DNA of 64,000 bases from Psammoneis japonica (GCA_008632985.1 QPGO01000124.1:124001-188000), one strand, 5' to 3'. Shown: positions 90 to 41,986, counted from the first letter of the stretch. Translations and numbers: made by a program. The notes: generated by a model not told the origin, from the sequence alone.

Positions 90-1307
90 CTACAAACAAG
101 ATTGGAGCAAGATGAGTCTTTTTAACTCGTTTGCGGGATTGGCCACAACACGTGTACGATGGTAATTCAGTTGTTCATTTGTACATTCATCTGATGCATT
201 AAAACTGCCTGCATCGTGTCGGCCCCCTTCCCAGGCATCCGAATCTTCGGAATCACTTGAGTTGAGGTCGCGGAAGTGATTGAGCTCCTCCTCGCGTGCC
301 TTGCACTTTTTCTGAGCGTTGGCAAAGAACTCCTCGACCTTCGATCCGATGAGAGCATCAATGTCTTCCTCATTCCGAGGTTTTGTGTCAGGCTTGCTGC
401 CTCCGTTGTTGGAATGTCCAGTCTTGGCACGTTTCGCGTGGTGCTTGAGCTGACGGCAATCCTCCGCATGATGTCCACAGTTGGTCCCGTGTGGCATGCA
501 TGACTTCTGGGTGTTCCGTTGGGTCGTGATTGACGACTCAGGATTGTCCGTTCTACGTCCCCGCTTGCGTGGAACCTCAGCATGTTGGTCCTGGTTACCT
601 TCGGCAAGCTCGACCTGCTCGATGCGCTCGCAGAACTGTACAAATTTGGTGACAGCATGCGCCAACGGGTCAAAATTCTGTAGCGTCATGAACTTCTGCC
701 ATGCGTTTGGCACACCGCACTCGAACATGTCGCACAGTTCGTCATTGGGCAATGGTGCCGGTGCTTCTCCATCCTCCGTCACGGGTGGAAACTGAGAGAT
801 GTGGCCGTTAATTTCAACAGCCCTTGCGACGTAGTCACGAGTGGAAACCTCTGCGGGCTTGCGCATGAAGCGCCTCAGATGACGCTTCTGCAGTGGCACC
901 GCCCTGTGAGGGAAGATGCTTTCCTTTAGCTTCGCGACGCATGCTGCGTGCGCAGCATTGGTTTGGGATGCCTGCTTGTCAGCGGCATCATTGAATGACG
1001 TCAGAGCATCGCCCTGTAGCAGGTCACGCACAAGGGCAAATTTTGCTGGCCCTGTCGTGATGTTTTGTCCTTCGTGCACGCGATCCACGTTGCGTAGAAA
1101 GATTGGGAGTGTCTCGCATGTAGCCGCAGAAAGGTGCAGGATGCCCATCTCGTGTGTTGGACCATCCGGATCAGTGGGGTTGTTGCGTGGCTTGAACATC
1201 TGGTGCTCGCCCTGCTGCAGCTCTTTCTTCTCCGGCCGTGCGAGCGGAATCGGCGGCTCAATCCGCTTCTTCATGGTCGTTTTGAGATTTGTCGGTCCTG
1301 CCAACAT
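90..1307 (-). mobile_element. gag: Ty3/Gypsy-type LTR retrotransposon gag ORF (degenerate)
   Basis: Gag-like segment 'IFPHRAVPLQKRHLRRFMRKP...LCDMFECGVPNAWQ' and Cys/His knuckle 'CMPHGTNCGHHAEDC', resembling diatom Gypsy gag proteins from memory. No pol and no LTR pair inside the window. Confidence 0.65.
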
Positions 1308-2471
1308 TTCGTAGTTTCGTTTCTGCAGATTTCGTCACCTCGCACAATGTGCGGGAGCAACATTGCTGTGCCCCATGCATGCACCAGGCGCTGAAAAAGA
1401 AGATGTGTCATGACTTTGTCATTGTGAAAATTACAAGCTAGTTTAGAGCAGAGAAAATGGGATCGTGTGAACAGGGAATCTTGCCAAATCCCCATTCGTT
1501 CGCATTTGGATCGCATCAAATCGATCGTGCGTTCGCATTGTGGATCGTGCGAATCAAGCCATCACGCACCATGCACGAGTGATGTCATCGTGTGGAATCA
1601 CGCTGCCATCGTGGGCCAGATGACGGGCTGGTGTGCTTCACACGGATGCTCTCTTGGCATCCTTCTGGAATTGCCCAAGACCTAGAGCCACGCCCTCCTG
1701 TGGTCGTGCTTCCCAGGTGCGTGTTGACAATGCTGCGTTGCCGCGCACAAGAGGCTCATGCATGGTCTCGCCGTGTTGTCCAGCAGCGAGGCATGCTGCA
1801 GCTGGACATCATCCAGAAGGAGGATGGTGAGCGGGAGAAATTTCAAAGCAGGAGAAAGGAAAAGTGTTGGGTGGAGAGACGTCGTCGCGTTGAAGTTAAC
1901 GAATTCGTGAGAATGGTCGGAGCGGAGACGAGGGCTTTCACCCACATGACTGACTGTTCCAACAGCAGGCGACACATCAGGTTTAGAGTTGCGAAGTTGG
2001 AGGGTGATGACAAACTGGGCTAGAAAAAACGATTTGGCGCCAAAAAGGATGGATGTGCTCAGGCCCCAACAGCAAACCGGAATGACGTTAAAGCAGGTGA
2101 GGGGTGTGTTCATTGCAGCAAAAACAACTTTTGCAGGTGCACGTTTCACAATGATGTTTTGAACAAAACACTTTTGCAAGCAATTTGCACTGTGGAAGTG
2201 GATTTCGAAATTGCAGCAAAAGAGAGGTTTGAACTGGAATTCGCAACGATTCAAATTTTTCATGAGATGATGAGGAGTGGCAAAATGGACAAATTGCATG
2301 TGCATTTAAAGATTTGGCCAATTCTCCATCATGTTGCATTTGAGAAAAAGGAATCATTGTTGGCAACTGTGAGATTTTTAGCGTTGAGAGGTTTGAAAAT
2401 TTCCCAACGACGAAAATCACTGGGGACACAAGGCCTGGAGCCAACCACAATTGGCAACAGTGGCACAGGCA

Positions 2472-8300: not shown

Positions 8301-9652
8301 TCTTGCAAGTGAGACCTGGCCACCTTGACAATCCACTGTGCAGACTTGCATTGTCCCACAGACTCACATGGGTGCACACTTGTTGAGGTTCGAAGTCACT
8401 GGCCATGGGCCCACTCCGCGGCGCTTTGTTTTCTACGCCAAAAAGAGAAAGTGCATTTTTTATTCCTTCGCATGAGTCGCCACCACTCGGGACTGTCCAT
8501 TTTTCCAGACGCACCTCTGATGCGGTCGCCAAAGTGCTCACTGTCGGTTGTTTTGTGGCCTTCCATTGGATGCAGATGAAGTGCATGACTTGTCGATTGC
8601 GCCACAATGATGTGTTTTTTTGAGATTTGCTGCAACAATCCGCCGCGCGGGAGATTGATTTTTTGAGGAGAACGAGAAAAGGCGATCCAACATGAACAAA
8701 GTTAGGGCACAATGCCCACAAAAACAATCAAGTGAGAGCACCAACTAATGTGCCAATTAAAACGCAAGATAAAAACAAACAAAAAAGAAACGAAATGTCC
8801 TCAACTGTTCCAATGTGAAAATCAGTGTCTCACAACATTTCGTTTTCAACTCAAGTGCACGCATTTTCTGGGAAAACAGCACCAGATCCTGATGGGGGGT
8901 TTGCAAACATGGCATTGTTTGCACAACCAAAGAGTTCACTGATCGGAACCAGATTGTTGATCAAACAAATGTGGTCTCTGCAATTTGGGCAATCTCCGCC
9001 ATCGCCACCACCAACATTCCCTTCAAACTCGTTGTTTGGCTTCTCGAGACAAACTTCACTGCCAAAGTCTGGAGCGAGGGCACCTCCACGAGTTGCGACA
9101 TTGTTGGCAAAGATGCACCCCTTGAAGGTGCCCTTTGCGGGAGATGAAGGGTCTTTTGCTGCGACACACACGGCACCACCCCACTTTGCTGTGTTGCCAT
9201 CAAAAAGAGTCCCTTCAAATGTTGCTTCGGCTCTCATCACCAGCGCAGCTCCTCCTCCCTGTTGTGTTGCCCAAAGAAAAGAAAATTCGTCAGTCCGTGT
9301 TCAACGCTGTCAAAAACGAATTAGACTGACTGCGCACAATGCCAGTGGGTGCAAATTCTCCGTTGTTTCTAAACTCGCAGTCGACAACAGATGCCTTGGT
9401 GGCTGGAGTTGCGCCGATTGCTGACTTTGTGAGAAGCGCACGAACACCTTGAGGATCGTCAGCTGACCGCCAAATGCGAATGTTAACAGGTGAGTCGGGT
9501 GTGAGACAGAAGCACACGGCAGACAGAGAGCAAGTTGGTGTGCCAAGGTGCCTTGAAATTCTGAAACGCAATGCGTCTGAAAGCAGTGTCTGAACCTTGT
9601 GCTTCCACTGCCAAGGCACAGTCGAGATGATCACCAGTCGTGTCGAAGGCGG

Positions 9653-9817
9653 CGAGTAAAATCCGATGCGGTGGTCGTGCAGATGGTGCCAGTGCGAGCC
9701 ACAAGAGAGAAGAGCAGCTTGTGACGTTAGAGAGAATGATGCGATAACGAAATCTTTAGGCTTGCGAACGGTGAGGGAGCTGTGGATGTAGCCGCACCTC
9801 CACATCCAGATTTTTTC
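9653..9817 (+). repeat. 5' LTR of copia element
   Basis: Direct repeat of 16177-16341, ungapped, 14 mismatches by manual alignment. Confidence 0.93.
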
Positions 9818-9821
9818 GCTT

Positions 9822-9834
9822 TGTCAGAGCCAGG
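9822..9834 (+). promoter_or_regulatory. Putative tRNA-iMet primer-binding site
   Basis: TGTCAGAGCCAGG just after the 5' LTR matches the TATCAGAGCCAGG part of the known copia Met PBS (TGGTATCAGAGCC) with one TA->TG change. Confidence 0.55.
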
Positions 9835-10276
9835 CTTCAGAGTGAGCATCTGGGCGCATTGAAACTATGATCGCATGACCTGCATTGAAAGCGACACGCG
9901 CACACGTTCGCTGTTGTTGAGAACCACCTGGGAGCTGACCGTAGAAAGTGCACTGAGTCCTGCGTGTGCGAATCTGCCACGTGTGAACGAGAAAATTGTC
10001 GAACTTGACGATGGGATTTACGGTCAGAATGGGATCACGCTTGCGACTCAAACAGTTTCCAACATGCCGGTGGGTGTTGGACAGCGCAGCGTGGGGCGGC
10101 ATGCCCGGGCACGTGCCCAACGAGAAAGAAACGGTCTGGGTTTGGCCACCCAGCACCGGTTGACTGCATGGACCCATTGCCATGGCGCTCGGATGCGTTC
10201 AGTCTCCCAACCAACCCAGTGTGCGTGTGCAAATCTCACAACCTGACCTTTTTCCCTTACATTCACCAACAGAACT

Positions 10277-11754
10277 ATGGCAGCAGCCCTGCCAGGAGCA
10301 GCCCTCGCGGCTTTGGCAGCAGCTGACGACGTTGATGCCGCATTGCAAGTGTGTGGCTTTGCCAATCAAGGAGCAAGGGCTCGCCTCGTCTTTTACGATG
10401 GATTTGACACCCTGGAAGACTTGGCCCTGATGGAGAGTGACAAAGACATCGAAGAGCTAGCAAGTCGCGCCGGCAGGCGTGCCGTGCAGGATGGCAGGGT
10501 GGTGACAGGGCCATCCAGCTCAAAAATCTACAAGTCTTGGTTTGGTGGCTTCGTGATCTTCAGAAGCGTGGACAAGCCCTGGTGGCGGCAGACTTTAATC
10601 ACGCGGTGTTGGTTGTGGCACGTGAGTTAAAGCGTGTTCAGGCCAATCGTCCCGACTCAGATACGAAAGTGAGCGACCTGCCAAAGTTTAACGCGGATGA
10701 GTTTGAGACTGTGGAAGACGCGTTCCTCAACCTCTTATCTCAGAAGCTTGGGGTCAATCAGGAACCGTTGCATCATGTGGCAAGGCCCGCAGCAGCACCG
10801 GCGGCATTTGCAGACACTGCCGAGCAGCGCATGTTCGACATCCCCTTGAATGGACCATCCTACGAGGAAGACAACAAGACCGTGTGCCGTTTCCTCAAGG
10901 AATGCCTCATCAACACGGACGGGTGCACATGGATTGAGTCTTTCAATGACACCGAGGATGGGCGGCGTGCCTTCTGGGCATGGTCCAATCACCATGACGG
11001 CCAGGGCGAGCTCAGCAAGCGCACTCAATTGGCCAAGACTCAGCTCGAGATGCTGCACTGCAAAAACGAAAGGCACTTGTCATTTGAAATGCACACTTCC
11101 AAACTGACCAGCGCTTTTGCGGCACTCCACAAGGACCCTGATGAGCGCAGGACAGCCACCCAGAAAGTGGATGCACTCCTAAAAAAGATTAAGACGGACG
11201 ATGTCACCCTCCGCGCATGCACGGCGATCATCAGCGAACGCTTTGGTGATGACTTTGCAGGGGCCTGCGCCTTCTTCTCTAAGGAGGTTGCTCGTTTACA
11301 CGGCCCAGCGCAGCTCGAGGCGCAGCATTGCAGGAACAAGCGTGAGGTCTCCCAGGTTGCGGGTGGCCAAGGATGCAGTCGCAACCGCGATGGAGGAGGA
11401 CGCGGTCGCGACGGTGGCCGTGGCCGCGGCGGTGAGGTCTCAATCAATGGTGTCGATTGCACTGACCCAACTCGCACCTTCTCTCCCGACGAATGGGAAA
11501 GGCTCAAACCCAACAGTGGTTGGACTCATGCAAGGCAAGCTGGGGAGCGCATGCAGGGCCGTGGAGGCCATTTGCAAGGGCGAGGTGGCCCTTGCAACAA
11601 CGAACACCAAGTGGCAGCAGTGCAGAAGGATGGCAAGCAACAGGACGATCATCAAGTGACACCCAGCACCGCAGGTGGCGGAGGAGGCAGCGACGACAAG
11701 GGTGGGCGTCATGGCGCAGGATTCGGGCGCGGTGCCTGCGGAGGGCGGTCCTGA
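10277..11754 (+). pseudogene. gag: Copia gag (frameshift near 10540)
   Basis: Overlapping ORFs 10277-10630 and 10537-11754, 'DGRRAFWAWSNHHDGQGE' segment and RGG-rich C-terminus. Confidence 0.8.
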
Positions 11755-11772
11755 AGGTGTGGGGCAACAGCT

Positions 11773-14700
11773 TTGACAGCACTTGGTGCACACTGCGCAA
11801 ACGTGTTTGTCTTGCCCTTGATCTTGGTCTTGTTGCCATCTCAACCCCACCCAAATGCCCTCAAAAGCATGCCTTGCAGGATCTCAGTGATTTCCAAGCG
11901 CAGTGCAAGGGCCGCAAATGCGGCCACGACATCAACACACACAGAGCCGGGGCACGTTTTGCGAAATGAATGCGACACACATGCAGACACTTGCTGCACC
12001 GGAGCCAATTGGAAACTCATGGAGCTCACGAACGAAACATGCGAAGCAAGTCCTTTCCTTGAATCACACGAACCTGTTGAGGAAATTCCGGTCGCACGTT
12101 GCTGCACTGTTTGGACAGACCCAGAGACGACGAAGGATTGCCTGCTGGTGGGCGACCAGATGTTGTGGTTTGGGCAGCAGATGGAACACTCCTTGATCAA
12201 TCCAAACCAACTGCGTGCATGCAACATGCCAGTCAATGACAACCCACACAATCCTCAGGACTCATTTGGCATTTCAACGGACGAAGCCTTCATCCCTTTC
12301 CACACCACGGGGACAGCAGTGTCCTTCGATGCTCGAGTGCCAACAGATTGGGAGGAGCAGAATTTGCCAGTTGTCATCTTGACCAGCGAGATGTGGAACC
12401 CGACAGAGGTGGGTGTGGGTTTCCCGAACAAAACTTGTGAGCAACAAGAAATGCGCACTGTTCAATCCTTGACCTCTCACATGCGCAAGTCCGAGATTGC
12501 AGAGATGAGAGCAGAGAGAAAGCAGTCCAAGGCGGTAGGATGGGGAGAAGTCGAAGAAACCATGGCAAGCATTTCCCCGATTCACAACCTCCAGACGTTC
12601 TGTGACCGCATGATTGCATCTGTGAAGATTGCTTGCACACACAGGGAGGATGTTGACAGGCACGAGCATGAGATCTCTGAACTGAGGACCCAAGATGGAC
12701 ACTCAAAGATCACTCCGGAAGAGCTGGCACGCAAGTGGAACGTCGGCCTGGACACAGCAAAGGACATGCTCAATGTGACGACTCAGCGAGGTGTCAGGAC
12801 GTCGACACGGCCTGTGTCGAGGCGCGTCAGGGTGGATCACTTGGACCTGCACCGAAAGCGACTGAAGGGGACGTGGTGTGCCGATGCCCTAATTTCAAAG
12901 GTCAAGTCATTGCTGGGAAACACGTGTGCGAACGTTTGCACTCAGGGGAAGTTTGTCAAAGTCGTTCCCATGGCAGCCAGGTCAGACTCAGGGCAATCAT
13001 TGATCGACTTTACGGATGATGTTGGTGTGCCTGAGATGTTGCTCACGGACGGTGCTGGAGAGTTCACTGGCAAGAACACGGAGTTTGTCAAACACGCGAG
13101 GCGCATGTGCACTCAGCTCCAAAACTCAGAACAGGGACGCAAGAATCAGAACCATGCGGTGGAATGCGAGATTGGATTCCTTGCAAAGCGCTGGAGACTC
13201 AGGATGACGAAGAAGAAAGTGCCGAAGCGATTGTGGGATTTTGGACTTGCACACGAGTCAGAACTGGTGACGCGCATGGCCAGATGATGTGATTGCAGGA
13301 CCGGATGTGAGGAAGTGACTGGACAAACACCGGAGATTGGTGAGCACTTGGATTTCGGGTTCTGTGACTCAGTGTGGTGGTGGGACCGACCAGACAAGCC
13401 AAATGCAACGGACGATCCCAGGCGGCTTGGGCATTGGCTTGGCATGTTGCACAAGGTTGGGTCCGACATGTGCCACTGGATCATCACCGAGAGCGGCAAG
13501 TTGGCATCGAAAACCTCAGTGGAGCACGTTGTGCAGGCCGATCACATTGAGTTGGACAAGCGGAAGCAGATCGATGATTTCAATGAGGCCTTGACTCAGC
13601 GACTTGATGACACGAACTTTGTGATTAAGGGCGATGAGGCAGCACCGGCTTTCTGTTTGGACGATGTTGCAATCGATGGAAGCGATGGGATTCAATGCAA
13701 AGAGGGCGCAACCCCGAGCAACGAGGAGTGCGGTGACATGCTGCAGGATGGTGAGCGCCCAGACGACAACAAGGAGGTTGTTGACCAATGTCTTGGCATG
13801 GAGCTCATCATGGACGTTGGCACCAAGGGCGAAAGGTGTGGGGCAGTCACAAAGCGAGCACGCGGCAACGATGGCAGGCCCCTGGGTTGACGGCACCAGC
13901 ACTCACTGTTTGACACGAGGGAGTGTGAGGTCGAGTTTGCCGACGGCATGACAGACAAGTGTGCTGCGAACATCATTGCCGAAAACATGCATGCTCAGGT
14001 CGACTCGGAGGGGCGTCAATTCTCTGTCTTGCAGGAGATTCAGGACCACCGGAAAGCTGCAGATGCGGTCAGCAAGGAAGATGGCACGGTCACGACAGCC
14101 GGTGGGCAGGTTGAACACAAGGTCACGACGAAGGGATGGGAGCTTCTAGTGCTTTGGCGTGATGGGAGCACAAGCTGGGTCAAGCTAAAAGACTCCAAGG
14201 CATCTGACCCGATTGAAGTTGCCGAATGCGCGGTGGCGAACCGGATCTCTGATGAACCAGCATTTGCTTGGTGGGCATCACATGTTTTGCGCAAACGCAA
14301 CCGGATCATTTCCAAGGCCAAGTCGAAGTGCTGGCGCACAACGCACAAGTTTGGGGTCATGCCACTGAAGAGTGTGGATGATGCGCTCCGGATCGACAGG
14401 GAAACGGGGACAGATTGCTGGGCACAAGCAATCAATGAGGAAATGAGCAAGGCAAAGGTTGCCTGGCGGAAACACGAAGGTGAGACACCCGAGGAGGTTT
14501 GTGAGGGTAAGAGCAACACGTTGCGTGGTTGCCAGGAAATCCAGTGTCATGTGGTCTTGACGTCAAGATGGACTTCACTCGCAAGGCAAGGTTTGTTGTG
14601 GGTGGACATGCCACCACAGCCCCAGATTCGATTGCATGCTCCAGTGTGGTTTCCCGAGACAGCGTCCGCATTGCTTTCATGTTGGCGGCGCTCAACGGCA

Positions 14701-16030: not shown

Positions 16031-16176
16031 AGCCAAGGTCCAGGGCCTGTGACTCGCATCCACACCTTGCAACCTCCCAGCCAAGCTAGTTGGCGGCTAA
16101 CTGGGTGTGTTTTGCCTCTTGACAAGAGGATGTTTTGAGAGTGCGAGTCGGTCTGGCAATGCCGACTCACGGGGAC

Positions 16177-16341
16177 CGAGTAAAATCCGATGCGGTGGTT
16201 GTGCAGACGGCACTGGTGCAAGCCACAAGAGAGAAGAGCAGCTTGTGACGTTAGAGAGAACGATGCGACAACGAAATCTTTGGGCTTGCGAACGGCAAGG
16301 GAGCTGTGGATGCAGCCGCACCTCCACATCCAGATTTGTTC
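16177..16341 (+). repeat. 3' LTR of copia element
   Basis: Direct repeat of 9653-9817, preceded by a short purine tract GGGGAC. Confidence 0.93.
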
Positions 16342-20724: not shown

Positions 20725-21146
20725 CCATGCTGCTGCCGACGCATTGTACGAAGTGCAATGTGCGCGCCCATGTCATCGGAGGCACAAGAGCCAGCCGGGA
20801 AAAAAAGAAAAAGAAAAAGAAAAAAGAAAACTGAGATTTAAACGAAGAATGTGACTCGTCGGTCCGTCTCGTGCAAATCGTCATAAAACGACATTATGAC
20901 ATTTTCGCCGTCATTTTGACAGTGCGATCCACTTGATCAAGTCGTCAAATTCACGATGATGTGGACGCAGACGAGTGTAGAATCATTGCCGAAGCGGAGC
21001 TCGCGAGCAATGGGCAGACGAAAAACTGCACCCACCGTCTGTCGGATGTGAGTGTGCCGCAAAGAGGAAAACTCAGCCAAAATGAACACATTCATTTTTG
21101 TAAAAGAAATGAAAGATGCAAATTTTCAAACCACAATTTTGAAAAA

Positions 21147-22250: not shown

Positions 22251-22373
22251 CGTCGCGCACGAGCCGTCCTGACCGCGGTGGGGTCTCCACAGGGACTGGC
22301 AACGACGCGGAGAACAACCAAGAGTAGACCAGCTGTAGAAGTTCTTGACTTGGGAGGAAAAAGGTCCAGGTCT

Positions 22374-24474
22374 TTAGAAAAGGACACTTCTGATGCAGCG
22401 AGCAACACGGACAGAATGCAGGAGGTGAGGATTCAACGGGCGAGAAATGTCATCCGCCAGTTGCATGTTGGCGCCAGCCCAGTGCTCGCCCTGCGAGTTT
22501 GGACCTGTCCGAGCACAAATGCAAAGCGCCGACCAGATGCAAAGCATCTGTTGTCCTCGGAGAGACCGCGCAGTCTGTCGGTTTTGCCAACCTGAACCAG
22601 TCCAGTTGTCCGTTTTCAACAAAACGACCAGATTTTCAGGAATGCCATGAGGAAAAAGAGCTCTGACCAACTCTACATCCAAGGGTTCATCAATGGACTC
22701 CATGAAGGTGATGACACCCGCCAAGACAAGGACAGAAACAACAAACTCAAGGGTGTTCATCATGACATGGTCTCGAGAATCCGGCGAAGATTGGAGACCG
22801 TCCCTCACTCTGTCGCTCCAAAGCACAAGGAACCAAAAACGAAACTCGCGGCAGTGACCGCCGCCTCCAAGCCCGCTCGCATCGCCAATCCCTTGGCAGT
22901 GGGGGATCACGAGGGATGATGGTCCCAAGCGGTGCCTCCCATGGGTTGGGTGTCGACTCGAGATGAGTCACCAAGCAATGCATCGCCCAACAAAGAGGGT
23001 CCGACACTGCAGTCTTGAGACGCATGTGATGAACAAGTTGCGCCTTTTCTCGAGAGAGAATGGACGAGACCCGACAATGGAGCTTCCGAGGGAGGTCATC
23101 CAAGATTTGTTCCTTCCTGCCGCGTCGCTCAAGAATCTGTTGTGCAATGTGATGCTGAGCAATCAAATTGGCTCGGAAAATGTTCTGGATCACGAAGAAC
23201 CAGCAACGAGCACAAGGACAATGCCGAGCATGGAACTCCAATGGGCCCAGAAGGGAAGAAATGTCTCCCAAGAGGCAACCTTGTCGCACCAGCCAGCCAC
23301 GGAGAATGATCAAAAGCTCACGCAACTTGTGAGCCACCACACCAACGGCAAGTGCTCTTGTGTCACACCTGAGTCCAAGCAAATCCCGAAGAAAAGAAAT
23401 GACGAGATTGAGCTTCTCTGGGCTCAAGGCGTTTGGCACCTCCGGCCTCGGAAAACCTTGGAGAACACAAAGAGAAAATGCACTCGCACGTGCACTCCTC
23501 TCCAAGAACTCCAAAACGTTGGCATGCAAATTGTCGTCAACGTGCAACTTGAAGGTGGGGGATGTTCTCTTGCCCTCTCGAAGTGCTCCTTGGTTTAAGG
23601 AATCCGGGAGAGCTTGACCAAACGAGGCAATTTCAGAATCTGACGGTGCCAGAGGAAACTCGAGCGTCGGCAAGAAGGGGCGCATAATTTCCACAATGTT
23701 TGGAACATGGAAAGCACACTGTGCGAGTTGCTGGCGAGCTTGGGACCACCCACCATCCCAGTTGTAAGGATTTGGTGTATCTCCAAAGCCACATCCAGTT
23801 TGGGCCACGCCAAACCCGCACTGGACAGAAGCATGCATGCCGGCCAAGTTGGGATGATGCTTCATCATCCGGTGCGCTCCAGTTGCGTCGTCATCGATCG
23901 GGTGGATGTCCAACGTTGGGTGCGACATCCTGACATCATGTGTCCATCACATGAAGTCCAATTCAGCTGCAGCATTGGAGCAGGAAGGTTCAAACTCCAG
24001 CAACAAAAAATCATTGATGGCCACAGACGAAGGGCTTGGTCGAAAGGTGCTGTCCGAGACCGGACGGGGATTCTTGAACAACTTGTTGACATCAACCAGA
24101 CTCTGAGGCGACAGATGACAATTCAGCATGAATGGCATGAATCGCTTGTCAAAAATCAAAACAAAACCACGCTTGGAATCCTTTGTGAGAGCCCGGCGAG
24201 TTTTTTCCACGTCCACTTCCACCGATGGGTGATTTCCATGCTGAAGGCATGCCTGGAAGTTCTCTTTGGTGTTGCATCCATTGCAGTGTGAAGGGACACC
24301 ATCTCTGTGTGTGCGCCGAAGCATTGAAATGATGTTGGGATCAACTTTGCCTGCAAGAAACGACAAGATCATGTCAACATGTCGATGCGCAGCAACGTGC
24401 GGTCCTCCGACCCATCGCACCAAAGATGCCACATCTCCATCAAAGTGGACAAGGGCTGTCGTTGTTTGGCACAT
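22374..24474 (-). pseudogene. RT/RNase H of the Ngaro element
   Basis: RT motifs 'DDDATGAHR', 'FGDTPNP', 'LHVDDNL'. RNase H motifs 'GDASGLGGG', 'NTLEF', 'TDN', 'LADDISR'. Confidence 0.82.
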
Positions 24475-25844
24475 GCGATCTTCTTGGAGGTCCTCTTCCT
24501 TTTCCCAGTCTACAGGGCATCCTCATGGGGTGTTGAAGTCAGCATCTCCAAACTCTCGGAGCAGGTTGCGCGGGGTTGTTCTTCGGCAGTGGCAGGGTTG
24601 CCAAAGTTAAGGCACTGGAGAGATGGAGGATCGTTGGTGCCATCATCAGGCAGCAGAGGTCCTTCGACATCATCCGGAGGGGTCTCGGCACGTGGCAGAT
24701 TGCACGTGACCACGTCGCCTTGAGGCACTAAAGAGACAAAATGCCCCTTGAAACGTTGGTGCGTTCCTGACATGGGGACAACTTCGCCGATGGCATCGGA
24801 GAAGCTGCACAAACATTTGACTTTGTCACCATCGTTCACAAAGGGAGCAGGTTTCGTAACTGGAACGATGCGACCCTCGCAGAACATGAGGAACTGGTCA
24901 AACTGACCACAAACGAAGTCTGCAATGGTGGAGCTGGTGTCGCAACGGAGGACAAGCTTTGTCTGGTTTAACGACAGCTCAGCCTTGGCACCTGACTGCA
25001 AAAAGCGCTTGGCAGGAGAGGTTTTCCCGCACTCGATGGCGGCGAGAACGTTGGCGGCCATGGCAGGACGGAAGGTTGGCAGGAGACTTGAAAGCTGAAT
25101 GCAAAAAGGCAAAACCGGGGTTTTGTGAGAGCAAAATGAGTTTTTCGGATAAAAATCTCGACGTAGAATTACGTTGAAATTGCGCCAGAATCTCGCGGCA
25201 AGTCAGCGGAATCCGCTCTACACGACCAGAGTCGTGTAAGAACTGGTTCACAAGATCAAGCAGCAGGCGGAGCAGTGTCAAATTTTGACGAACGGAAAGA
25301 AAAAGGAGGGATTTCTGGTCACCGTCCTAAGAGTTTGAAAAACCGGAGAGTTGTGGTCGCGATTTTTTGAGCGGGAAGACGCAGAATGCGCAGCCAATGC
25401 ACCAATTCCGGATTTGGACAGAATGCTTGTGGGAGCTCCCAGATGGGGGGACTCACAATGAAGATGTGCACAAATTTGCATCGAATGACATGCAAACAGT
25501 TTCGTCGAAATTGCAGAAAAGAGGTCACATCTCATCCAAACATTTGAAGATGTTTTTCATTTGGATCAGGACACATGACAAAGTTGATTCTTGTCAAACC
25601 GTTACAATGGTCAAAAGGTGACATGCAAAGATGAATGTGATGAAGAATGGATGATGCAACAACCGCAATGGCGGCAGATGAAGAGGAATTGCAGCTTAAA
25701 AGCCGCTTTTTCGGATTGACATGACACAAGTGAAGTGATGACAGTGATGCCAATGGGCTGTGTGGACAGTGCATTGTGGTGTTCTGACATGACAGATCAG
25801 AAACCATGAGAGAGAAGAGGCCAAAATGTGGCGAGATCGGTTGG

Positions 25845-26225
25845 ATTTCAGATTTTCGGATTCAACACGATCAGAGAGGCGTCTGAGGCGGCGGGATAAA
25901 GTCCCGGTCCAACCAACAGCAAAACCCAACTGTGTTGCTCGCGCTCCAAATTAGTTGGAGTCAACAAAGACAACACAGGCATCACACACGATCAGCTGGC
26001 TTGCGGAGAGCATCCGGATCCAGCAAAATCGTGCAATTTCAGATTCTCAGATTCACCCAATCAGAGAGGCATCTGAGGCGGTGGGACAAAGTCCCGGTCC
26101 AACCAACAGCAAAACCCAACTGCATTGCTTGCGCTCCAAATTAGTTGGAGTCAACAAAGACAACACAGGCATCACACACGATCAGCTGGCTTGTGGAGAG
26201 CATCCGGATCCAGCAAAATCGTGCG
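25845..26225. repeat. Tandem duplication, ~190-bp unit x2, in the Ngaro 5' region
   Basis: AACCAACAGCAAAACCCAACTG at 25911 and 26101, with the rest of the unit aligning. Confidence 0.9.
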
Positions 26226-26339
26226 ATTTACAGAGGATTGTTGTGGTGACCAGATGAAAAGATCAAAGTCAACCACGGATGTGACAGCAGTCACACTCAT
26301 TGTGTGGGTGGTTGTCCGAGGCACAACAATCAACAGAAA

Positions 26340-26566
26340 GGGAATTTTCAGCATTGTTGGCCCATGTCGGGACACTGCAACTGACCCCATTGCTGCCGAT
26401 CGTCTGCCAAGAACAATGAGGGGAACATGGGTGGCCTCTCGTCATCGTCCATCGTCTGTCCATCCACCTTCGACTGTGCGCTGCTGTCGCGCGGTGACTC
26501 CTCCAAGAGCGCGACCGCCCACAAGGTGTCCTCTCCTTGTGCTTGGCCCACCGTCTTGGCTTCGAG
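26340..26566 (-). repeat. Ngaro 5' repeat A1
   Basis: Direct repeat of 20272-20497. Confidence 0.9.
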
Positions 26567-28846
26567 GTGAAGCACAGCACTGAGTTTCGCGTAGAATGTA
26601 CGTTGAAGTCTGTCCATTTTTTGTTCCTGCCACAAGAAAAATCCAGGGGGCGGTCTGCCCCCGCCTCCCCACCACTGTCAGTGCAATTTTGAAATTTCAA
26701 TGAAACGATGGAATGCAAAACGACTCAGAAAGACAACGTGAAGCGTTGGCCACGTTCTTTTTTTGATGAAAAGCCACAAAGCGCTGCTGCTCCTGCTTTG
26801 CACTTGTCATGCACCACTGACTTGTTTGTCGGCTGTGCCTTTTTCGCCTCGAAAACATCACGGCGCCATTTCTGTCTTAAAGAAGGATCTGCTGACCGCT
26901 GGAAATTTCAACAGACGCAACGTCGTTCCCCAAGATTTGGCACTGGAAAACAGCCAACGCCAGCAAGGCAATCAGTTTCCCTTCAGCAAGCCCCATGATG
27001 CTCTTGCAATTCGTGGAGGCGATGATGACCGTCCGGACAGCAACAGCTGGGATCACGGATGCAATGATGACCATCCAAAAAGTGATGGCTGGGACGACAT
27101 CTGTGACGATCTCTGCCGTCTTAGCTGATTTTCCTACAGCATGGACTGGAAAGTGCCGCATCAGTGTTCCTTGCTCATGTGCACGGTTAAAGTGCTCGGT
27201 CGCTTGACCCGTTTTGCCGCAAAAAACTTTCTGCATTTTGTGTTCTTTGCACGCGGATGCGCCTTGAAAAAGAACAACAGCAAACCTGTTGCAGAGAAAG
27301 ATGATCCCTTGCTTCCATTGTTTGGCTTTGTCAGAGATCGAGTCGTTTTTGCTTTGGCTCTTTTTGCCACTCGAGTCTTGTTGCGTGCGGAAGCTCGTCT
27401 TTTTGTTTGTCCTGACTGGTTGCAACTTTGGCTTCTTTTCTGGTTTGCATGCTTGGTGACAACATCGAACCCGAGTGCGACAGCATGCACGACGATGACA
27501 TTGAAGCCGACGGTGATTTGGAAGATTTGTTGAATGAAATTGAGGAACTAAGATGACAGGCGGATGGATCATGAGGTGATCGTGATTACAGCCTGAATCA
27601 TAGAAAGACCATGGACAAGTTTTGTCCTTTGAAATGTCAAGAGTGCAGCACAACAGTTTGATTGATTTTCTCACATTGAGAACGCGCATTCCATGGAGCC
27701 GATCCCATGTGCAGACCTTTGGAACATGCTGCCGGAGAGCATGACACCTTTGCTTTTGATGACATGGCTTGTCTCTGCAACCTCGGACATGAGCAGTGGT
27801 TTCAAGCACCATCTGTGGCAATGTGTTCAACACAAATTGGAAACGTGCCACTCAAAGTTGAGACAATGCGATGCACAACATCTGACTTGTGCTCTGTTGG
27901 ATGAAGAAGAGAATTTGATGCACCCCATTGTGAAAAAGAAGAGTGATGAAATTGAGCAAGAAAAGGACTTTCTAGAAAAGAATGGCCATGGACACCTCAA
28001 GCGACTGGAAAAGATGATGGGTTTCAAACAGAGATGCGACTGTCCCTCGAAATCTCCCGGCTTTGTTCCTTGTGTGGCATGCTCAGATCTCAACAACTGG
28101 GATCTGTTTTGAGACCTGTGGGGACTGGATCAACCTCAAGGTTTCAAAGGTTGTTGGCCAATTTGCTGAATGACCCGTCCTTTGCCTCTTGCACTTCTTG
28201 TGCCCCTCCTTCTTGCGGGTGCCAAATGGTGCTGGCCTGTGTGCTTGACAACCTGGCTTTTGACCCTTGCACCTCTTCTGTTCTTTTTCTTTTGCATCTT
28301 TGCTTTGGCCGGTGTTGTCACAAGAGGAGAAGGTGGCACCTGCACAGAAAGAGCAGGAGGGCACTGCAGCATGGGGTGTTGCATCACCGCCGCCATGGCA
28401 GGAGGTGCAGCATTCATGCAGTGAACTCTGGCATTTTGGCCAGGCATGCATGCCAGAGCCGGAGTGGGGTGCATCACAGGTGCAGCCTGAGCAATCATGC
28501 AGGGAGTCAGATCATTGTTTTGTCCATGCACCATTGATGCCTCAGCCAGGGCATGGTGCATCACCGGCTCATTCGGAGCATTCGTGTGTCGTGTTGGCTC
28601 CACAGTCAGAGTGCTGCGAGTCAGTGGCATTGGCAGAGCATCCAGGCAGCAGGGAGTTGGAGCATTGTTTTGGCCATGCACCACAAATGCATCAGGTGGA
28701 GCATGGTGCATTGATGGCATGGTCTGAGCAGCTGCACACTGTGCCCATTGGAAGAGATCAAAGATGTGTTGTTTGCTTGCTGGCAAACCAGGGTTCAAAG
28801 GAAACTTTGATCACACCTCTGTCAAACACATCCACATGTCCTTGCT

Positions 28847-31294
28847 CTGGAGCAAGGCATTGCAAGCATCTTTTGGCTTCTTGTTGATCCCCCCAACAGT
28901 GCGGTCCAAATTTTCTGCCACCTTGGTCTGCAATTTGTGCAACAGCATCCTGAAAGAGCTGCAGAGATCCCCATCAATGACGTGCAACACAGCAGCATGA
29001 TGCAAATGACAGGCTCAAGTAGGATCTCATCCGGTGGGGCATGGGGCTTCCATCTGCAAAGCACCTTCCAGCTGTGTGTAAAATTCAACATTGTCATGAG
29101 AAGAAAACAGAAGCAAAGAACTGATGCAACCCATGGCCGTGACGTAGATCAGCAATTTGGGGCCACTGGCCACTGGAGCAGACCTCCTCATGCTTGTGAC
29201 TGCTTTGCCAATGCAGTGTTGACATGGAAGCTCCATCTGAGGTGCAACGTCAGCACAAGTCAAGCCCCAGAGAGCTTGTTGGCCAGTGAAGTCAACAGCA
29301 TTTGTGTCAGCCCCCATCAGCAGATGCAAAATGGAAACATTTCCAAACTTGTTGCCCACAGCTGCCATGTTCCAATCCAATGATTCTTGGTGCATGATTG
29401 GCAGTGGGGTTGGATTGCTTGTGATCAGGCTGAGGCAGTCAGCACTCACATCGTGTTGCACAATCTGGATTGAAGTCACACATCACCCATGAAGGCCCTG
29501 TCACCTGCCGTCTGCAAAGTCTTGCAAAGGGCGGGCAGTCCCTTCAGCTCACACTTGCACAAAAGCTGCTGTTTTCCCATTTCGTGCAACCAAACAGATT
29601 TGCTGATTCCCACAAGGAGGCAACCTTGGAAATGGGCCATGGCAGGGATTGGCCCATCATCAACCACAGTCTTGTGCAAGAGCTGCAGCCATTCACCAAT
29701 GACGTGGTGCAAGATCACATGACTCGATGTCTGTTTGAGTGGATGTGGGATCATCCCGGTGACAGTTCCCACCACCAGAAGAGGCTTGCCACCCTTGGAG
29801 TGCAAACAGATGGAGCAACAGCACAGTGCAGCTTCACTCCATTCCAACTCAAGACAATCCAATGTCTTGCAACTGTCACCAGGGCTCACAACTTGAACAC
29901 AGGATTCCCAGCAACCCGGCCCGGGAGGCACAGGCCTGTGAACGACAATGTGGTGGGCCTCTTTTTCTTCTTCATCCTCTTCATCTTCCTCTTCATTGCC
30001 ATCTTTTTTTCCCTTGTCATCCCAATCATCACTGTCAATGTCCATGGCATCATCATTGTCAGCTGACTTTCCAGTCTTGCTCGTTTCTGGGTCAAAACCT
30101 TTGGCTTTCTTGTCATTGAACCCACAGTCATTGTGGTTGCTTTTGATGACTGCCAAGATGACTGCCTCTGCTGCTCACCTGCCAAGAGGGTCATTTGACA
30201 TGGAGTGTGGCAAAGTCGCACTTGTTGCACATGATGTGGCATGATTGTCCCCACTCAAAAATGATGTGGTGTGATCCAGTGGCAAGCAAGATTGTGGTGC
30301 ATGCTTTTGAGTTGTCCCACTTGTTGAGAGAAACATCATGGCCAATTGCCCATCAAGGCACATGCGCGTCACCACCATGGGATGAACTCCAAGGAAATGG
30401 CAAGTGACGCTCACACCAATGGTGCCAGTGACAGGATTTACAGTCATTCTCAGCAAGCTGCTGTTGTTGTCCAACCCAATCGCCAGAGTCTGCGAATTGT
30501 TGGCAGCTTTGCTGTGGACAAGTTAGATGGAGTGCAGACGCGACTGACTCCTCCGGGTCCATCTGTCATGATTGAGTCCCAAATCCAATTCATGACAGGC
30601 CACTTCTTTTGACACTTTTGGCACACCTTCTTGTGCTGCATCCTCTGCACCCTCTCTTCTTCCTTTTTGATGGTTGGATGCACAGATTTGAGTGCAGCAA
30701 ATCTGGGATTGTTGCATCCATTGTCCAATCCGACGAGATCGACCATCAAAGTTCAACTGCAATGAGCTTCCAGGGGACTGGCCAGTGTGGGTTCTCCCAC
30801 AGCATTGCGATTGAGTGCATGGACCAGTTTGCTCTTTTCCATGGCCGCAATGCAAAGGCTTTGTCCTGCCAGATTGGCCACAATGCACTGTCCCAGCATG
30901 GCTCTCTGCATGATCATTTTGCCAAAATCCACCATGTGCATGGCCTTGCACGTGGCCACACTGTTGCTGTCATCATTGGCACTCCATTCCACAATGCTCA
31001 GGGCACCACTGTCCAAGCCGAGGGCCACCATGTCATGTGAGGCTCCCCTCCAATGCACGGCCACAGCAGAGTGCAGGATGCTCCTTTTTCACAGCATCCG
31101 CAAAACTGCAGACTGACAGCATCCTCCTCCTCATCGTCATCATCACCAGTGCTGCTCTTGACAATTTTGCACAATTGCAACATGCCGCTGGCCATCAGGA
31201 TGCAGAGTTCCAATTTACCCACAGCATTGAATTCACCGGCTGTGCTCGCAACAATGGCCATGGCCCCTTGGAGATGGCAATCGAGCAGTTTCAT
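28847..31294 (-). pseudogene. SF3B3: Splicing factor 3B subunit 3 (Rse1/SAP130) pseudogene, internally deleted and hypermutated
   Basis: Collinear motifs 'AAMEKSKLVHALNR...LASPLEAH', 'HELDLGLNH', 'HEMGKQQLLCKCE', 'GNKFGNVSIL', 'VIDGDLC', 'AENLDRT'. At ~2.4 kb it is shorter than a ~1200-aa CDS. Confidence 0.88.
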
Positions 31295-32260
31295 GGCAAT
31301 GGTCATGACGGGAATGCCTCCATTGTCATTGTCATTGTTGGTTTTGGAAGCCGCGTGGGGTGGCATGGCTGCAGAGAGAAGCAACAAGAACAACCACTGC
31401 CAATCAAGAATGAAGTGAAGAGGATGTCAGTTGTTGCTGTTGTTGTGTGTCAGCTCTTCTTTTGTCTTTTGCTCTTCCACAACAAACTGCTGACAGAGTG
31501 TGGCTTGCATTGGCAAAAGATGGCATTGCCTCTCTTCTCTGTTGCAAACAAGAGGACAGACACAGGACAACACTGTTCTCTGCCTCCGTTTGTGCCACTG
31601 ATCTCTCAATTTTGTGTGTGGTGCTGGTGGATTTGGATTTGATTCTCACCTCCAAATGATCACAAGCTGTCCCCAAGAAAGAAACTGTGGCAACTGTCTT
31701 TTCTCAGATGCTGTCTGGCAGCAGTGAGGAGCAGACTGTAAAGCCAGTCTTACATCATGTTGTGAAGACTGTCACAAAGAACAACACTTGCACAGAACCC
31801 TGTCCAGTTGGTCTGACAGGCTGGCTTCTTCATCCCCATTGGCATGTGGTGGAGAATCAAAGGCCAAGCTTCCGTGCATTGCTGGCCTGCAAAATGAGGA
31901 GAATGAACATGAACAAGATGCCATTTGCCCCACCACAATTGTTTCGAGTCATTCAACTTTAACAGTTGCATTCTCTGGAAGGACCCACCTTCAAAACCAA
32001 CCGTCCATGGCATCATCGTCCAATTCCCTGTGGCAAAGGCATGATCCATGGCAACTTGATGCCTCACCATGTTGTCATCCATGCCAACCAATTGTTGCAA
32101 AAATGAGTGCAATCTGCACCTGCCACTTGCCACATGCAGCAAGTCACTGGCGTTGATTCAGCAAACAACAAAATTGATTTTGCCCTTGGAAACCTGAAAC
32201 TTTGACCCACAGCCAACTGTGGAGGACAATGGAGCAGAATGACGCAGCAAAAACAGAGGA

Positions 32261-34327
32261 GATGCATTCCAGCCCTGCTCCAGGTGGGACTCCATGTGAC
32301 ATTGGGCCCACAGAAATCTGTGTGCGAGCTCCACAGTGCAAGAATTTAGTTGATGGATGCATTTGTCTTCAACATCAAATGAACGGCCAAGTTTGTGGCA
32401 CAATGATTGTGCCTCTTGCCACTTGAAGGTTTTGCAAATGCACCTGCCCTGCGCAATTCTTAAGAGGGGTCACCCCCCAGTTTGTCCTGCAGTTGGCATT
32501 GCATTTGAACAAGCTCAATTCACAGACTTTTGTTTTTGAATGCTAAATTTGTTCCATGCTCACACCAATTGCGAACAAAAACAAGAACACCAGCCACCGC
32601 GATTGAAGCATGATGATGACGGCAATCATCAATCTTTCTTGAAAATGCAGTTTGCTGGCATCACACTCTCACCTGATGTTGATCATGCTGCACACAGTGA
32701 GCACAATGCCAATGAGAGTATGACGCCAGCAAACCTTTGTTGCAGACTTGTGGCTTGCTGTTTTTGCCATGGTGAAGCACGGTGAAATTCAAAAAAAATC
32801 ATGCAAATCACAAGCCATTCAGCCAAATTTGAGTTGAGACACCATAGAATCACAATTCCATGGCAGCAGCCACCCACTCAAAACATCTGCGTGTGTTTTT
32901 ACGCGTGCTCTTGTGCTGATGTTGCCCTTTTCCGATGGCATGTTGCTGGTTCTCTCAAGACCATTCTGGCCATTGGCATCAATGGCATGCCCCTGTTTCA
33001 GCATGTCAAACAACGTTGCTGAGTGGAAAATGACTGGCGTCAACTCCTTGTGGGTCGTGCTGATTTTTTTTGTTGTTTCATGTGCAGAGCCAAGAAATTT
33101 TCTGCATGGATCCCAGCACAAATTTTGCCCACTTCAGCAAACAACACCGATGAATGCTTTGTCACATTTCCGAGCTTCTTGTGCCCACACCTGTCTGTCC
33201 TCAATGATCCTCTTCATTCATGTCAGCCAACCCAGTCCTTCACTGTGCAGAGTGAAAGCACTGCCACAGTTGCGGCACCAACAAGCATGAGCATGAGCCC
33301 TCCTTCAGCATCAATTGACTGTTCTCAATTTGCTGTGCACTTTGGCAATTCTTTGCAAGATCTGGTGCAAATTCTTTGCAATTCAGCTGACACCACCAAT
33401 GAATGCTTTGCCATGTCTCCGAGCTTCTTGTGCCCATGCCTGTCTGTCCTCAAAGATCCTCTTTGTGCCTGTCAGCCAACCAAGTCCTTTGCTCCATGGG
33501 GTGAAAGCACCGCTTCAGTTGCGGCACCAACAAGCATGAGCATGAGCCCTTCTTCAGCATCAATTGACTGTTCTCCATTTGCTGCATGTGTCGGCATTTC
33601 TGCGCAAGATCCAGCATGGTTTCCACATGTAGAAAATGTCATTCCCAATGACTGACCCGTCACATCATCAAGTGCTCCTGTTTCCAATCTCCCAGTCATG
33701 GATGACCCCTCCCTTGCTTTCTGTCAAACCAAGCTTCCTGTTGCACACAGTGATCTTTCTGTCTTTGTCACATTTCTTGGGGGTTGGAACAAGGCTCCCT
33801 TCTTAATGAGTGAAGGCCAGTGGTTTGGAAACCATTTTTTGACTTACTTCCCTTTGTTGTTCCCAAGCCCAAACCTGAAAGCAATTTTTCTTTGCTGTTC
33901 TAGTGTGGCAGATGCATCTCCAGTCCAAGTGAAAGCAATGAGCTCCCCAATGTGTCACTTCATCCCCCCCATCTGTCTCAGTCGGGCGTCCTTTTTGGAG
34001 GGTGCAAATCAGGCCAATCAAGTCCGCTTCTGCTGCATCCTTCTTGGGGTGTGCTGGAGGTGTGGGTTGGCCGGTGCTGGTGTTGCTGGGCAAGGGTGTG
34101 ACAGCACTTAAAATTTGGTTTGAGTTTTTAAGACATCACAGAATCATGCTGCAACAAAAAATGTCAAAAGTTGTCAGACGGATTGCTCAACAAGTGCACC
34201 ACAAAACAACACAAAATTTCACAAAAGTCACACACCTTTCTGTGTGCGCGACATGCAGTGCAATGCAAAAAACTGTCAACGTCACAGTTCAGCACTGCAA
34301 GGTCCCGCCCAGAGCTGGAAGCGCATC
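32261..34327. mobile_element. TIR element family A, copy 3 (more decayed), carrying a ~1.66-kb internal insert
   Basis: Ends align to copy 2. Termini GAT...ATC, TSD AGGA (32257-60, 34328-31). Confidence 0.8.
33133..33590. repeat. Imperfect tandem duplication, period ~249 bp
   Basis: TGAATGCTTTG...CCGAGCTTCTTGTGCCCA...GCATGAGCATGAGCCCT recurs from 33151 and 33400. Confidence 0.85.
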
Positions 34328-35690
34328 AGGAACAGTGCCCAAATCAAAATGATGAGCATGAGATGCAAAGAAGAATCATTGCCAAATGATGTGAATGAAT
34401 GCCTGCTGGCACTGTGCACTTCCATGCACACAAATGGATTTAAACTGACCGTCTGGCATGTGTGCACACATGTGAGTGTGAATTGTGATCTGCACACTTT
34501 CAAAACTGAGAGAGATTCCAGCTCATTTTTGTGCAAACCATCCACACATGAGAAATGTTCACATGATTGAACAAAGATTTCATTGTTGTAAATGCACATT
34601 TTAAAATGACATTGCCATTTTGCCAAGGGCAAGCAAACCAAGAAGTCGTCCCACCACTTTTTGCCCCTCTCTCCTCCCTCTTCATTTTAAAATTTTTCCT
34701 GCATTGTTTGCATTGGATGGTGGAGAGTGGGGAGCCCTCCATCACTGCAGAGGAGACAATGAAAGATGATGCAGAAAAGTGACAGTTGCCAAGCCATTGC
34801 TTGCCGGGAAAGCCAAAATGACATTGAGGCTGCACAAGCAGCAACAGTCGCCACAAGATCAGTTTGCCAACATCTGCTGGTGGATCCCAAGCGACAGCTC
34901 TGAAGACAGCAGAAGTCTCCACTGCCGAGTCTTGTTCCTTGATGATGATGACTTTGCCTCTCTTGCACCTGCAAACAGCCCTGGCCCACAGTGGAGCCAA
35001 AAATAGAAAGCAACAAGACAAGCCACAAGCCAATGTTGTTGCTTTGGTGGCACCAGCTGCTGTCTTGAATTCTCTTGACAGAGGCACGACTCTTGACAGA
35101 CTGACGAGAAAAGTGGCACCTGTTGGCTCCCCACAAATCTGCCCTGGTGTAATTTGCAAAGGGCAGCAGGGTGCACAACTCATTTCTCCATTGCATGGGA
35201 CAATGTCAGTGCTCACACCAGGCACTTCATTTCATGGGTTGTCCAAGTCAAATGGTCCACCAAAAATTGGTTTGTGAAGTTGACAATGCGGGGCTGTCTG
35301 GCACAAAAGTCAAAACACCACCTTGACAATGCGAGAAAGATTCCATCTCCTCAAGCAACTCCCACAACCAGAAAGTCTGGTCTCTCAGCTTGGTGAATCT
35401 CTCAAGAGTCATCAGTTGAGATGCTTGCAGAATGACTTTTTGCTTTGACTGAAATGATGATGGGGTTTGGTGCCAAGAGAACAACAGCCCGATCCATGCT
35501 GGTGTTGCACCACTGCCCCCCCAACAAATGATGCTTTCCCAGAATTGTGGATTGCCAATTGTTCTGCTAGAGCAGCTGCCATGATCAATGCCCCTGTGCA
35601 TTGCAGGAGCAACACAATTGCTGTGTTGGAGCTGAACTCCAAACCAACTTCTTCAGAACCTCACACGTTCTCCCTCCTCTTGTGAACCTT

Positions 35691-41933: not shown

Positions 41934-41986
41934 TACAGTAATATCCAATCACTCTCTCTAGAAAACTAGGTGTTGTGATATGTATT

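Follow-up and report, generated by a model that had tools for sequence, protein, structure and literature searches.

A stretch of 64,000 nucleotides of the diatom Psammoneis japonica (QPGO01000124.1:124001-188000; this whole stretch is called the window, and all coordinates are counted within it) was analysed for the loss of the dinucleotide TpA. TpA is almost absent from discrete domains, which hold a copia-type retrotransposon, unclassified repeats and a pseudogene of the host gene SF3B3, and it has its usual frequency in the neighbouring genes. The depletion itself is confirmed. It was probably caused by a process at the DNA level, which acts after insertion and turns TA into TG or CA within discrete silent domains.

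The observed/expected ratio (O/E) was calculated for all sixteen dinucleotides and followed along the window by a sliding count. The following blocks were delimited:

1-35690: TpA-depleted domain 1, TA O/E 0.12; continues beyond the left end of the window
35691-52399: unaffected gene block, used as internal control, TA O/E 0.54, CG O/E 0.99
52400-55090: TpA-depleted domain 2, between two genes, TA O/E 0.05, CG O/E 0.22
61640-64000: TpA-depleted domain 3, TA O/E 0.05, CG O/E 0.16; continues beyond the right end of the window

The original prediction had described a near-absence of TpA over about 35 kb beside genes of normal composition. This was borne out, with a TA O/E of 0.12 in domain 1 and of 0.54-0.57 in the genic stretches 35691-52399 and 55091-61639 (CG O/E 0.99). 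Domain 1 contains 252 TpA, whereas it would have 1350 at the density of the adjacent genes (Poisson P ~1e-295); its O/E values for CG, TG and CA are 0.62, 1.57 and 1.59. Domains 2 and 3 are additional blocks with the same pattern, which had not been listed before. In the depleted DNA, TG and CA are the only enriched dinucleotides. The steps AT, AA, TT and GC are unaffected, so that the loss is confined to TA and, separately, to CG. The borders are abrupt: at ~35690, 52310, 55090 and 61640 the spacing of TpA switches within about 100-400 bp.

Two classes of depleted DNA were distinguished. Only TA is depleted at about 1-2 kb, 8.5-27.5 kb and 54.55-55.09 kb, where the CpG O/E is ~0.8. Both TA and CpG are depleted at about 4-8.5, 27.5-35.7, 52.5-54.5 and 62-64 kb, with TG/CA values of ~1.9-2.1. 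The loss of TA is also visible in the stop codons. Counted on both strands of the depleted DNA, 1780 TGA compare with 203 TAA and 160 TAG, an excess of about nine- to eleven-fold. This explains the many long spurious open reading frames (ORFs) of the depleted DNA.

The direction of the change was determined with two identifiable sequences of domain 1, a copia-type retrotransposon with long terminal repeats (LTRs) and a host-derived pseudogene:

9653-16342 (+): copia-type LTR retrotransposon with LTR pair, RVT_2 and pol homologues, TA O/E 0.13
9653-9818 and 16177-16342: copia LTRs, a 166-bp pair, 91.6% identical
10441-16089 (+): copia gag-pol reading frame with three in-frame TGA and two frameshifts
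28850-31366 (-): pseudogene of SF3B3 (splicing factor 3B subunit 3), TA O/E 0.04, CG O/E 0.27

The retrotransposon shows the Ty1/copia layout, an LTR pair around gag-pol with RVT_2 downstream of an integrase-like region. RVT_2 was detected at 14511-15176 (E=1.6e-15) in a Pfam search of the ORFs of the depleted DNA. No match to the Pfam integrase model (rve) was obtained in the element; the integrase reading is derived from the homologues and from inspection. For pol, 9429 homologues were found at E<=0.001, and full-length pol homologues align over 10459-16032. The SF3B3 pseudogene was recognized by two CPSF_A domain matches (E=1.4e-20 and 2.2e-08). It lacks residues ~270-681 (about 410), contains frameshifts and 6 stops, and its best homologue is 67% identical; the named matches are diatoms (among them Nitzschia, Cylindrotheca, Pseudo-nitzschia and Skeletonema), so that the assignment to a diatom is reasonable.

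Two further observations were made on the copia element. Its depletion is graded, with a TA O/E of 0.19-0.27 at 9501-11500 (LTR and gag) and of 0-0.08 at 11501-14000 (central pol); local flank composition or differences in targeting could account for this gradient. The in-frame stops at 13285-13287, 13888-13890 and 14737-14739 are all TGA. Since loss of TpA is unable to create stops, they must come from other changes (e.g. CGA>TGA) or from a former TAA.

As claimed originally, the 504-amino-acid copia ORF at 11773-13287 contains no tyrosine. The absence extends to the whole pol translation, in which none of 995 residues is Tyr when the three TGA are read through. The 150 best pol homologues have a median Tyr content of 3.4% (minimum 0.29%), and in the window the ORFs of six neighbouring genes have 2.3-3.9% (2.4-3.9% in the control block). 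Cys and His amount to 3.8% and 3.7% of copia pol, compared with ~1.2% and ~2.5% in the homologues, and this excess matches the missing Tyr. In a MAFFT alignment of 41 sequences none of ten conserved Tyr columns is retained (6 Cys, 1 His, 3 other), compared with 12/12 conserved Trp, 6/6 His and 24/27 Gly. Comparison by tblastn gave the same picture for 23 conserved Tyr codons of copia, which now encode Cys (12), His (4), Tyr (3) or other residues (4). The 20 conserved Tyr codons of the SF3B3 pseudogene became His (10), Cys (7) and Leu (1), and two are still Tyr. The proposed direction, TpA to TpG or CpA, is thus supported by 16/23 conserved Tyr codons in copia and 17/20 in SF3B3 that are now Cys or His. 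At these sites the homologues predominantly have Tyr, and their normal Tyr content excludes the opposite direction. The seven copia motifs on which the direction had been based are all present. Six of them carry a Cys or His codon at a conserved Tyr (14227, 14329, 14637, 14733, 15766 and 15892; Tyr in 11/16 to 35/35 aligned homologues); the seventh, GCQEI (14530), fell below the conservation threshold.

Of the 66 conserved copia columns with a replacement, 23 changed by a single TpA-type step and 7 by a CpG-type one. For the SF3B3 pseudogene the corresponding numbers are 25 and 67 of 158, and its CpG-type replacements comprise R>H/C/Q/W, D>N, E>K and T>M. These shares fit the two classes of depleted blocks. 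Furthermore, all 79 related copia loci from metagenomes have a TA O/E of 0.47-0.88 (median 0.68), compared with 0.13 for the copy in the window (z=-5.5). Thus, the low TpA of this copy was acquired and is not native.

LTR pairs are identical at integration. Of the 11 differences between the copia LTRs, 10 are changes among TA, CG, TG and CA. The LTRs of one element therefore differ at TpA-type sites, and the mutation followed integration. Together with three other young duplicate pairs, the copia LTRs make up 821 aligned bases with 46 substitutions, of which 41 are among TA, CG, TG and CA. A control tandem repeat in the gene region shows only 7/30 such substitutions. In the young pairs 13 sites have CA in one copy and TG in the other, compared with about 2 expected from CpG decay. 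From the sites beyond those due to CpG decay, the number of sensitive TpAs in the ancestor is put at about 26. Each copy lost ~92% of them independently of the other, and 8 more TpAs survive in both copies. The resulting 34 ancestral TpAs in 821 bp are to be compared with 3.8% in genes; hence the ancestral TpA density was about normal. Sensitive TpA thus has a loss per copy of ~0.92, CpG one of 0.26 and all other sites one of ~0.003, rough values from small numbers in 821 bp. By this rough and indirect estimate, the rate of TpA loss is about 8 times that of CpG and several hundred times the background rate.

An action on both strands had been proposed and is indicated by the equal frequency of the two products, TG 3491 and CA 3552 in domain 1 and TG 626 and CA 603 in the sense-oriented copia element. 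Cys and His outcomes alternate along the polarised Tyr codons of copia and SF3B3. Together these results mean that both strands were affected, site by site, and the strand symmetry rules out an editing of the sense RNA before integration. No strand-coordinated runs of products were found along the polarised Tyr codons, and there is no sign of a processive one-strand action.

The survival of TpA depends on the flanking bases. Survival is given as the surviving TpA in each flanking context relative to the genic density:

ATAT: 0 (0 sites vs 62)
ATAC/GTAT: 0.025
GTAC: 0.07
ATAA and ATAG classes: 0.08
CTAG: 0.25
GTAA and CTAC classes: 0.28
CTAA/TTAG: 0.49
TTAA: 0.79

RTAY (R, purine; Y, pyrimidine) has all but vanished, and YTAR has been spared to a large extent. 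Most of the values are fitted by a model with one flank per strand. The next base outward matters as well, the survival of TACY being ~0.05-0.07 and that of TACR ~0.23. A nucleosome-like periodicity of the surviving TpAs was not visible in a pair-distance histogram.

The sequence was recovered from a public sequencing run, named X1 here. Of the sampled 31-letter words of 26000-35600, a fraction of 0.81 is present in this run. A contig of 4341 bp (word depth 56.9) corresponds to 27398-31738 and differs from it by 16 substitutions and 6 gaps, and a contig of 4944 bp (depth 69.3) spans 34925-39868, across the border of domain 1, with 6 differences. The agreement with the assembly is 99.6-99.9% over 4.3 and 4.9 kb. 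Word contigs as long, deep and nearly identical as these are presumably the product of accurate reads and argue against a base-calling artefact at modified bases. The possibility that the raw reads show TA was not supported by the X1 contigs, with the proviso that X1 may be the sample of the assembly itself. Among the 16 substitutions between contig and assembly, 4 are TA/TG, 10 are CpG-type and 2 are other changes. The stretch has 10 TpA and 75 CpG, which makes TpA the most polymorphic class per site, as would be expected if the process is recent or still ongoing.

The most depleted stretch, 27.4-31.7 kb with the SF3B3 pseudogene, is covered by one read contig only, at a word depth similar to that of genes. 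This suggests that 27398-31738 is single-copy, noting that a summed word depth is no copy number and that the pseudogene itself duplicates a host gene. The restriction to repeats, which was part of the original prediction, is therefore not established; what is targeted appears to be DNA in a silent or foreign domain and not repeats as such.

The assumption that no equivalent had been described has to be corrected. A 2026 preprint on the chlorarachniophyte Bigelowiella natans (Mettrop et al., bioRxiv 10.64898/2026.01.13.699255) reports that integrated DNA of giant viruses and virophages undergoes TpA-specific hypermutation. The mutation rate of two viral insertions, followed in mutation-accumulation lines, is ~1000-fold above that of the rest of the genome. 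Of 231 changes in the two hypermutable regions, 230 are A>G or T>C, without exception at TpA. Elsewhere in the genome, reverse transcriptase and transposase domains are over-represented in clusters poor in TpA and rich in CpA+TpG. The authors suggest an ADAT2-like DNA adenine deaminase, without test.

Both organisms share the exclusive change of TpA to TpG or CpA on both strands, the discrete foreign or silent regions beside a normal genome, and the long-term footprint, in which TpA is low and CpA+TpG is high, with reverse transcriptases among the TpA-poor coding sequences. They belong to different lineages, Rhizaria and diatoms (Stramenopiles), and the targets differ: viral insertions in B. 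natans, an LTR retrotransposon, unclassified repeats and a host pseudogene in the diatom. Depletion is near saturation in the diatom (O/E 0.03-0.13), compared with 0.45 in the giant-virus region of B. natans. The evidence is direct in B. natans, where the excess of ~1000-fold was measured de novo in mutation-accumulation lines. In contrast, the diatom provides a footprint, and its several hundred-fold excess is a rough indirect estimate. The RTAY/YTAR flank rule and the co-occurring CpG decay are described for the diatom window. In sum, the features by which the B. natans process is recognized, A>G/T>C transitions, restriction to TpA and confinement to separate stretches of mobile or foreign DNA next to a normal genome, are all found in the diatom.

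Repeat-induced point mutation (RIP), as found in Neurospora and other fungi, converts CpA to TpA, increases TpA, lowers the GC content and creates stop codons. It depends on duplicated sequence, a RID-type DNMT and the premeiotic stage. It resembles the pattern in the window as a regional, dinucleotide-specific transition hypermutation, which ruins transposons and leaves sharp compositional blocks. Its polarity is opposite: the window loses TpA, gains GC and loses stops. The RIP signature of TpA gain and CpA/TpG loss is absent, with TpA at 0.12 and TG/CA at ~1.6. Deamination of 5-methylcytosine (5mC) gives the same products, TpG and CpA, and is visible in the older blocks (CpG O/E 0.16-0.27), but it is unable to remove TpA or to turn Tyr codons into Cys or His. 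CpG decay as the sole cause is contradicted by the TA-only blocks, which keep a CpG O/E of ~0.8. The claim that the process is distinct from RIP and from 5mC decay is thus supported, by the opposite polarity in the one case and by TpA loss at a CpG O/E of ~0.8 in the other. ADAR and APOBEC3 in animals also cause deaminase-driven, clustered transitions in mobile elements, and ADAR prefers a 5' U. However, they act with strand bias on RNA or on single-stranded cDNA before integration. The changes in the diatom are post-integration, strand-symmetric and also present in DNA other than retroelements, and the signature of an editing before integration, one-strand edits shared by both LTRs, was not found in copia. 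Many diatoms carry DNMT4 enzymes of unknown function related to the RIP factor RID (PMC9998398); this is a lead, not evidence.

In the proposed mechanism, an A:T>G:C transition would occur at the A of either strand of 5'-TA-3'. The process would act inside silent domains of dead transposons and the host pseudogene, would stop a few hundred bases from genes and would proceed site by site over many generations, until the sensitive TpAs are exhausted. The decay of CpG to TpG or CpA, most simply by 5mC deamination of methylated transposons, would form a second layer that is dominant only in the older blocks. TAA would become TGA or CAA and TAG would become TGG or CAG, so that no stop codons are created. 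Elements would be inactivated by missense changes (Tyr>Cys/His, Ile>Met/Thr etc.) and presumably also by the erasure of TA-rich signals, e.g. TATA and AATAAA. The process may be enzymatic and targeted by chromatin or by the silencing state, and it may serve as genome defence. Concerning the chemistry, deamination of adenine to hypoxanthine at T-A by an ADAT/TadA-like deaminase is the leading candidate, and may be a little less plausible than, or at best as plausible as, the other routes within this explanation taken together. tRNA adenosine deaminases act in the context U33-A34, and the requirement for T before A recalls this.

A wider reading is that diatoms possess an active, targeted DNA editing of RTAY to TG/CA in silenced mobile or duplicated DNA, that this is the same system as in B. 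natans, that it represents an ancient defence of Stramenopiles and Rhizaria, opposite in action to fungal RIP, and that its effector is a natural DNA adenine deaminase. This is conceivable, and we put it forward tentatively as the less probable side of the question. To our knowledge, adenine deamination in chromosomal DNA is known so far mainly from laboratory-evolved base editors.

Several points weigh against the proposed process. No stop codons are made, which is odd for a dedicated inactivation system. The signature was detected in none of the 79 metagenome copia relatives and in none of the 120 scored pol homologues; 120 of 150 homologues were scorable, the 79 loci were kept from 560 confirmed ones, and both sets favour intact copies. 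The ancestral state was derived from proteins that are only 35-67% identical and not from intact copies of the same family. As X1 may be the sample of the assembly, it may not be independent, and its library type is not on record. For the side of the flank preference, 3' of the A or 5' of the T, a tetranucleotide product model gave r=0.49 for position +1, 0.05 for position -2 and 0.47 with no preference. Tyr codons gave 9 His and 8 Cys after a purine and 5 His and 11 Cys after a pyrimidine, which is not significant. Finally, some surviving TpAs could be newly made by C>T and would then not be refractory.

Alternative explanations were compared with a DNA-level process starting at adenine. The chemistry of such a process might instead start at the thymine of TpA and yield T>C, by 5-hydroxymethyluracil (5hmU) or 5-formyluracil (5fU) of the JBP/TET type pairing with G, or by mis-excision by a glycosylase and error-prone repair. 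As TpA is self-complementary, T>C and A>G are indistinguishable from the products, and R-[T]-A agrees with the flank data no less than T-[A]-Y does. In dinoflagellates 5hmU is enriched at TpA. Nevertheless, TpC and other T-containing steps show no loss, and adenine deamination is favoured, itself without test, in the only published proposal, that of the B. natans preprint. A start at thymine is therefore regarded as unlikely. Slightly less likely still is a passive by-product of silent methylated chromatin, in which repair is lacking or polymerase or repair is biased and TpA is the most exposed step. The CpG decay of the blocks is what methylated silent DNA would show, the process yields no stop codons and no dedicated gene is known, all in agreement with a passive origin. 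A several hundred-fold excess at one dinucleotide with a strong flank rule and with borders sharp to 100-400 bp is difficult to reconcile with it. In addition, the process in B. natans switches on in only some lines and looks regulated.

Editing before integration, by an ADAR/ADAT-like enzyme at UA in retroelement RNA or double-stranded RNA followed by reverse transcription and insertion, would agree with the preference of ADARs for a 5' U (as quoted in the B. natans preprint) and with the A>G hypermutated retroelements that are known in animals. The differences between the copia LTRs at TpA-type sites place the mutation after integration, and TG 626 and CA 603 on the copia sense strand leave no strand bias. 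Spacers, tandem repeats and the deleted host pseudogene are equally affected in one contiguous domain. ADARs are not known to occur outside animals. Such an editing is highly improbable, and the same low probability is given to a sequencing or assembly artefact, in which the consensus would retain systematic miscalls of heavily modified TpA and CpG bases in silent DNA. The two affected steps are both self-complementary YpR steps and typical sites of DNA modification, and the sole matching run, X1, may be the assembly's own sample. On the other side, X1 contigs at a depth of 57-69 reproduce the sequence and cross the border, which noisy long reads would presumably not do; the SF3B3 pseudogene carries a large deletion, frameshifts and stops as well, and duplicate copies differ from each other at TpA and CpG sites. 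Lowest of all stands a native composition, i.e. foreign DNA inherently poor in TA, or a selection against TA. TpA is mildly under-represented in most genomes, and also in the genes of the window (0.54-0.57). Here the host-derived pseudogene lost 17/20 conserved Tyr codons to Cys and His, related copia elements have a normal TA content, and invariant Tyr residues of the catalytic domain were lost. For the parts tested, native composition and selection are refuted. GC-biased gene conversion was rejected as well, as TA alone is lost among the AT-containing steps.

Literature searches, papers on diatom transposons included, gave no account of such a process in diatoms; the kind of process has been described once before, very recently, in B. 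natans. If the proposed DNA-level process is true, TpA-directed hypermutation is not limited to one chlorarachniophyte. It would occur also in diatoms, a major and genetically tractable group of phytoplankton, and there it would be saturating and directed at ordinary retrotransposons. This would be a sign of a eukaryotic pathway of genome defence or mutation that is widespread and has a polarity opposite to that of RIP. Such a pathway raises GC, takes away stop codons and leads to the loss of Tyr codons and TA-rich signals. Transposon dating, repeat annotation and compositional analyses would be biased by it; Pfam missed most of the elements here. The search for the enzyme gains a motif (RTAY much more sensitive than YTAR) and a ranking of rates (TpA > CpG >> rest). 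Should the enzyme be a natural adenine deaminase of DNA, the field of base editors would have an interest in it.

The depleted DNA contains further features, all in domain 1:

90-1334 (-): gag-like ORF with a Cys/His knuckle-like stretch, gag reading by inspection only
18293-18662: further copy of the high-copy short repeat
20031-26566: second repeat-bounded element, class unknown, TA O/E 0.14
20031-20258/20497-20724 and 20272-20497/26340-26566, tandem 25845-26234: repeats of the second element
32280-34320 (32280-32465 and 34156-34320): high-copy short repeat

The gag-like ORF is partly TA-depleted (O/E 0.25-0.4) and gave no family match. The ORF at 22750-23946 (-) of the second element has only two homologues, both unnamed, and belongs to no Pfam family. 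The copy of the short repeat at 32.3-34.3 kb is interrupted by an insertion of 1.7 kb, which is missing from the other copies, as seen from contig joints of 32459/32465 to 34130/34149 in run X1. The summed word depth of this repeat in X1 is up to ~20000, compared with ~60-70 in the flanking DNA; it is apparently a very high-copy family. The Pfam search covered 102 ORFs of the depleted blocks. Apart from RVT_2 and the two CPSF_A matches, it yielded no more than a DUF5898 match below threshold and two weak matches; domain 2 gave none. The DUF5898 match (E=4.9e-06; 26.9 bits, cut-off 28.9) was observed for 17371-17937 (-) / 18746-19615 (-), possibly another degraded host or mobile gene. The two weak matches, BNLF2a and Chlam_PMP, were below the cut-offs and probably arose by chance.

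The control block 35691-52399 contains, among others, an ABC transporter-like ORF and carbamoyl-phosphate-synthase-like ORFs, named by inspection of the translations and not by a family search. Consecutive ORFs at 43044-47682 (-) resemble one carbamoyl-phosphate synthase gene with short introns, likewise by inspection of the translation only. In a second run, X2, recorded as 'DNA?', a contig joins 36293-36661 to 36744-36898 and skips 36662-36743. This junction resembles a spliced transcript of a minus-strand gene lacking an 82-bp intron; otherwise X2 matches only 36.1-39.4 kb. In the second genic stretch, at 59001-59651, lies the only 500-bp bin of the normal gene region with a TA O/E near 1 (0.95), and its CpG O/E is low (0.48). 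It holds a tandem duplication of 160 bp (59330-59491 / 59493-59651, 80% identical).

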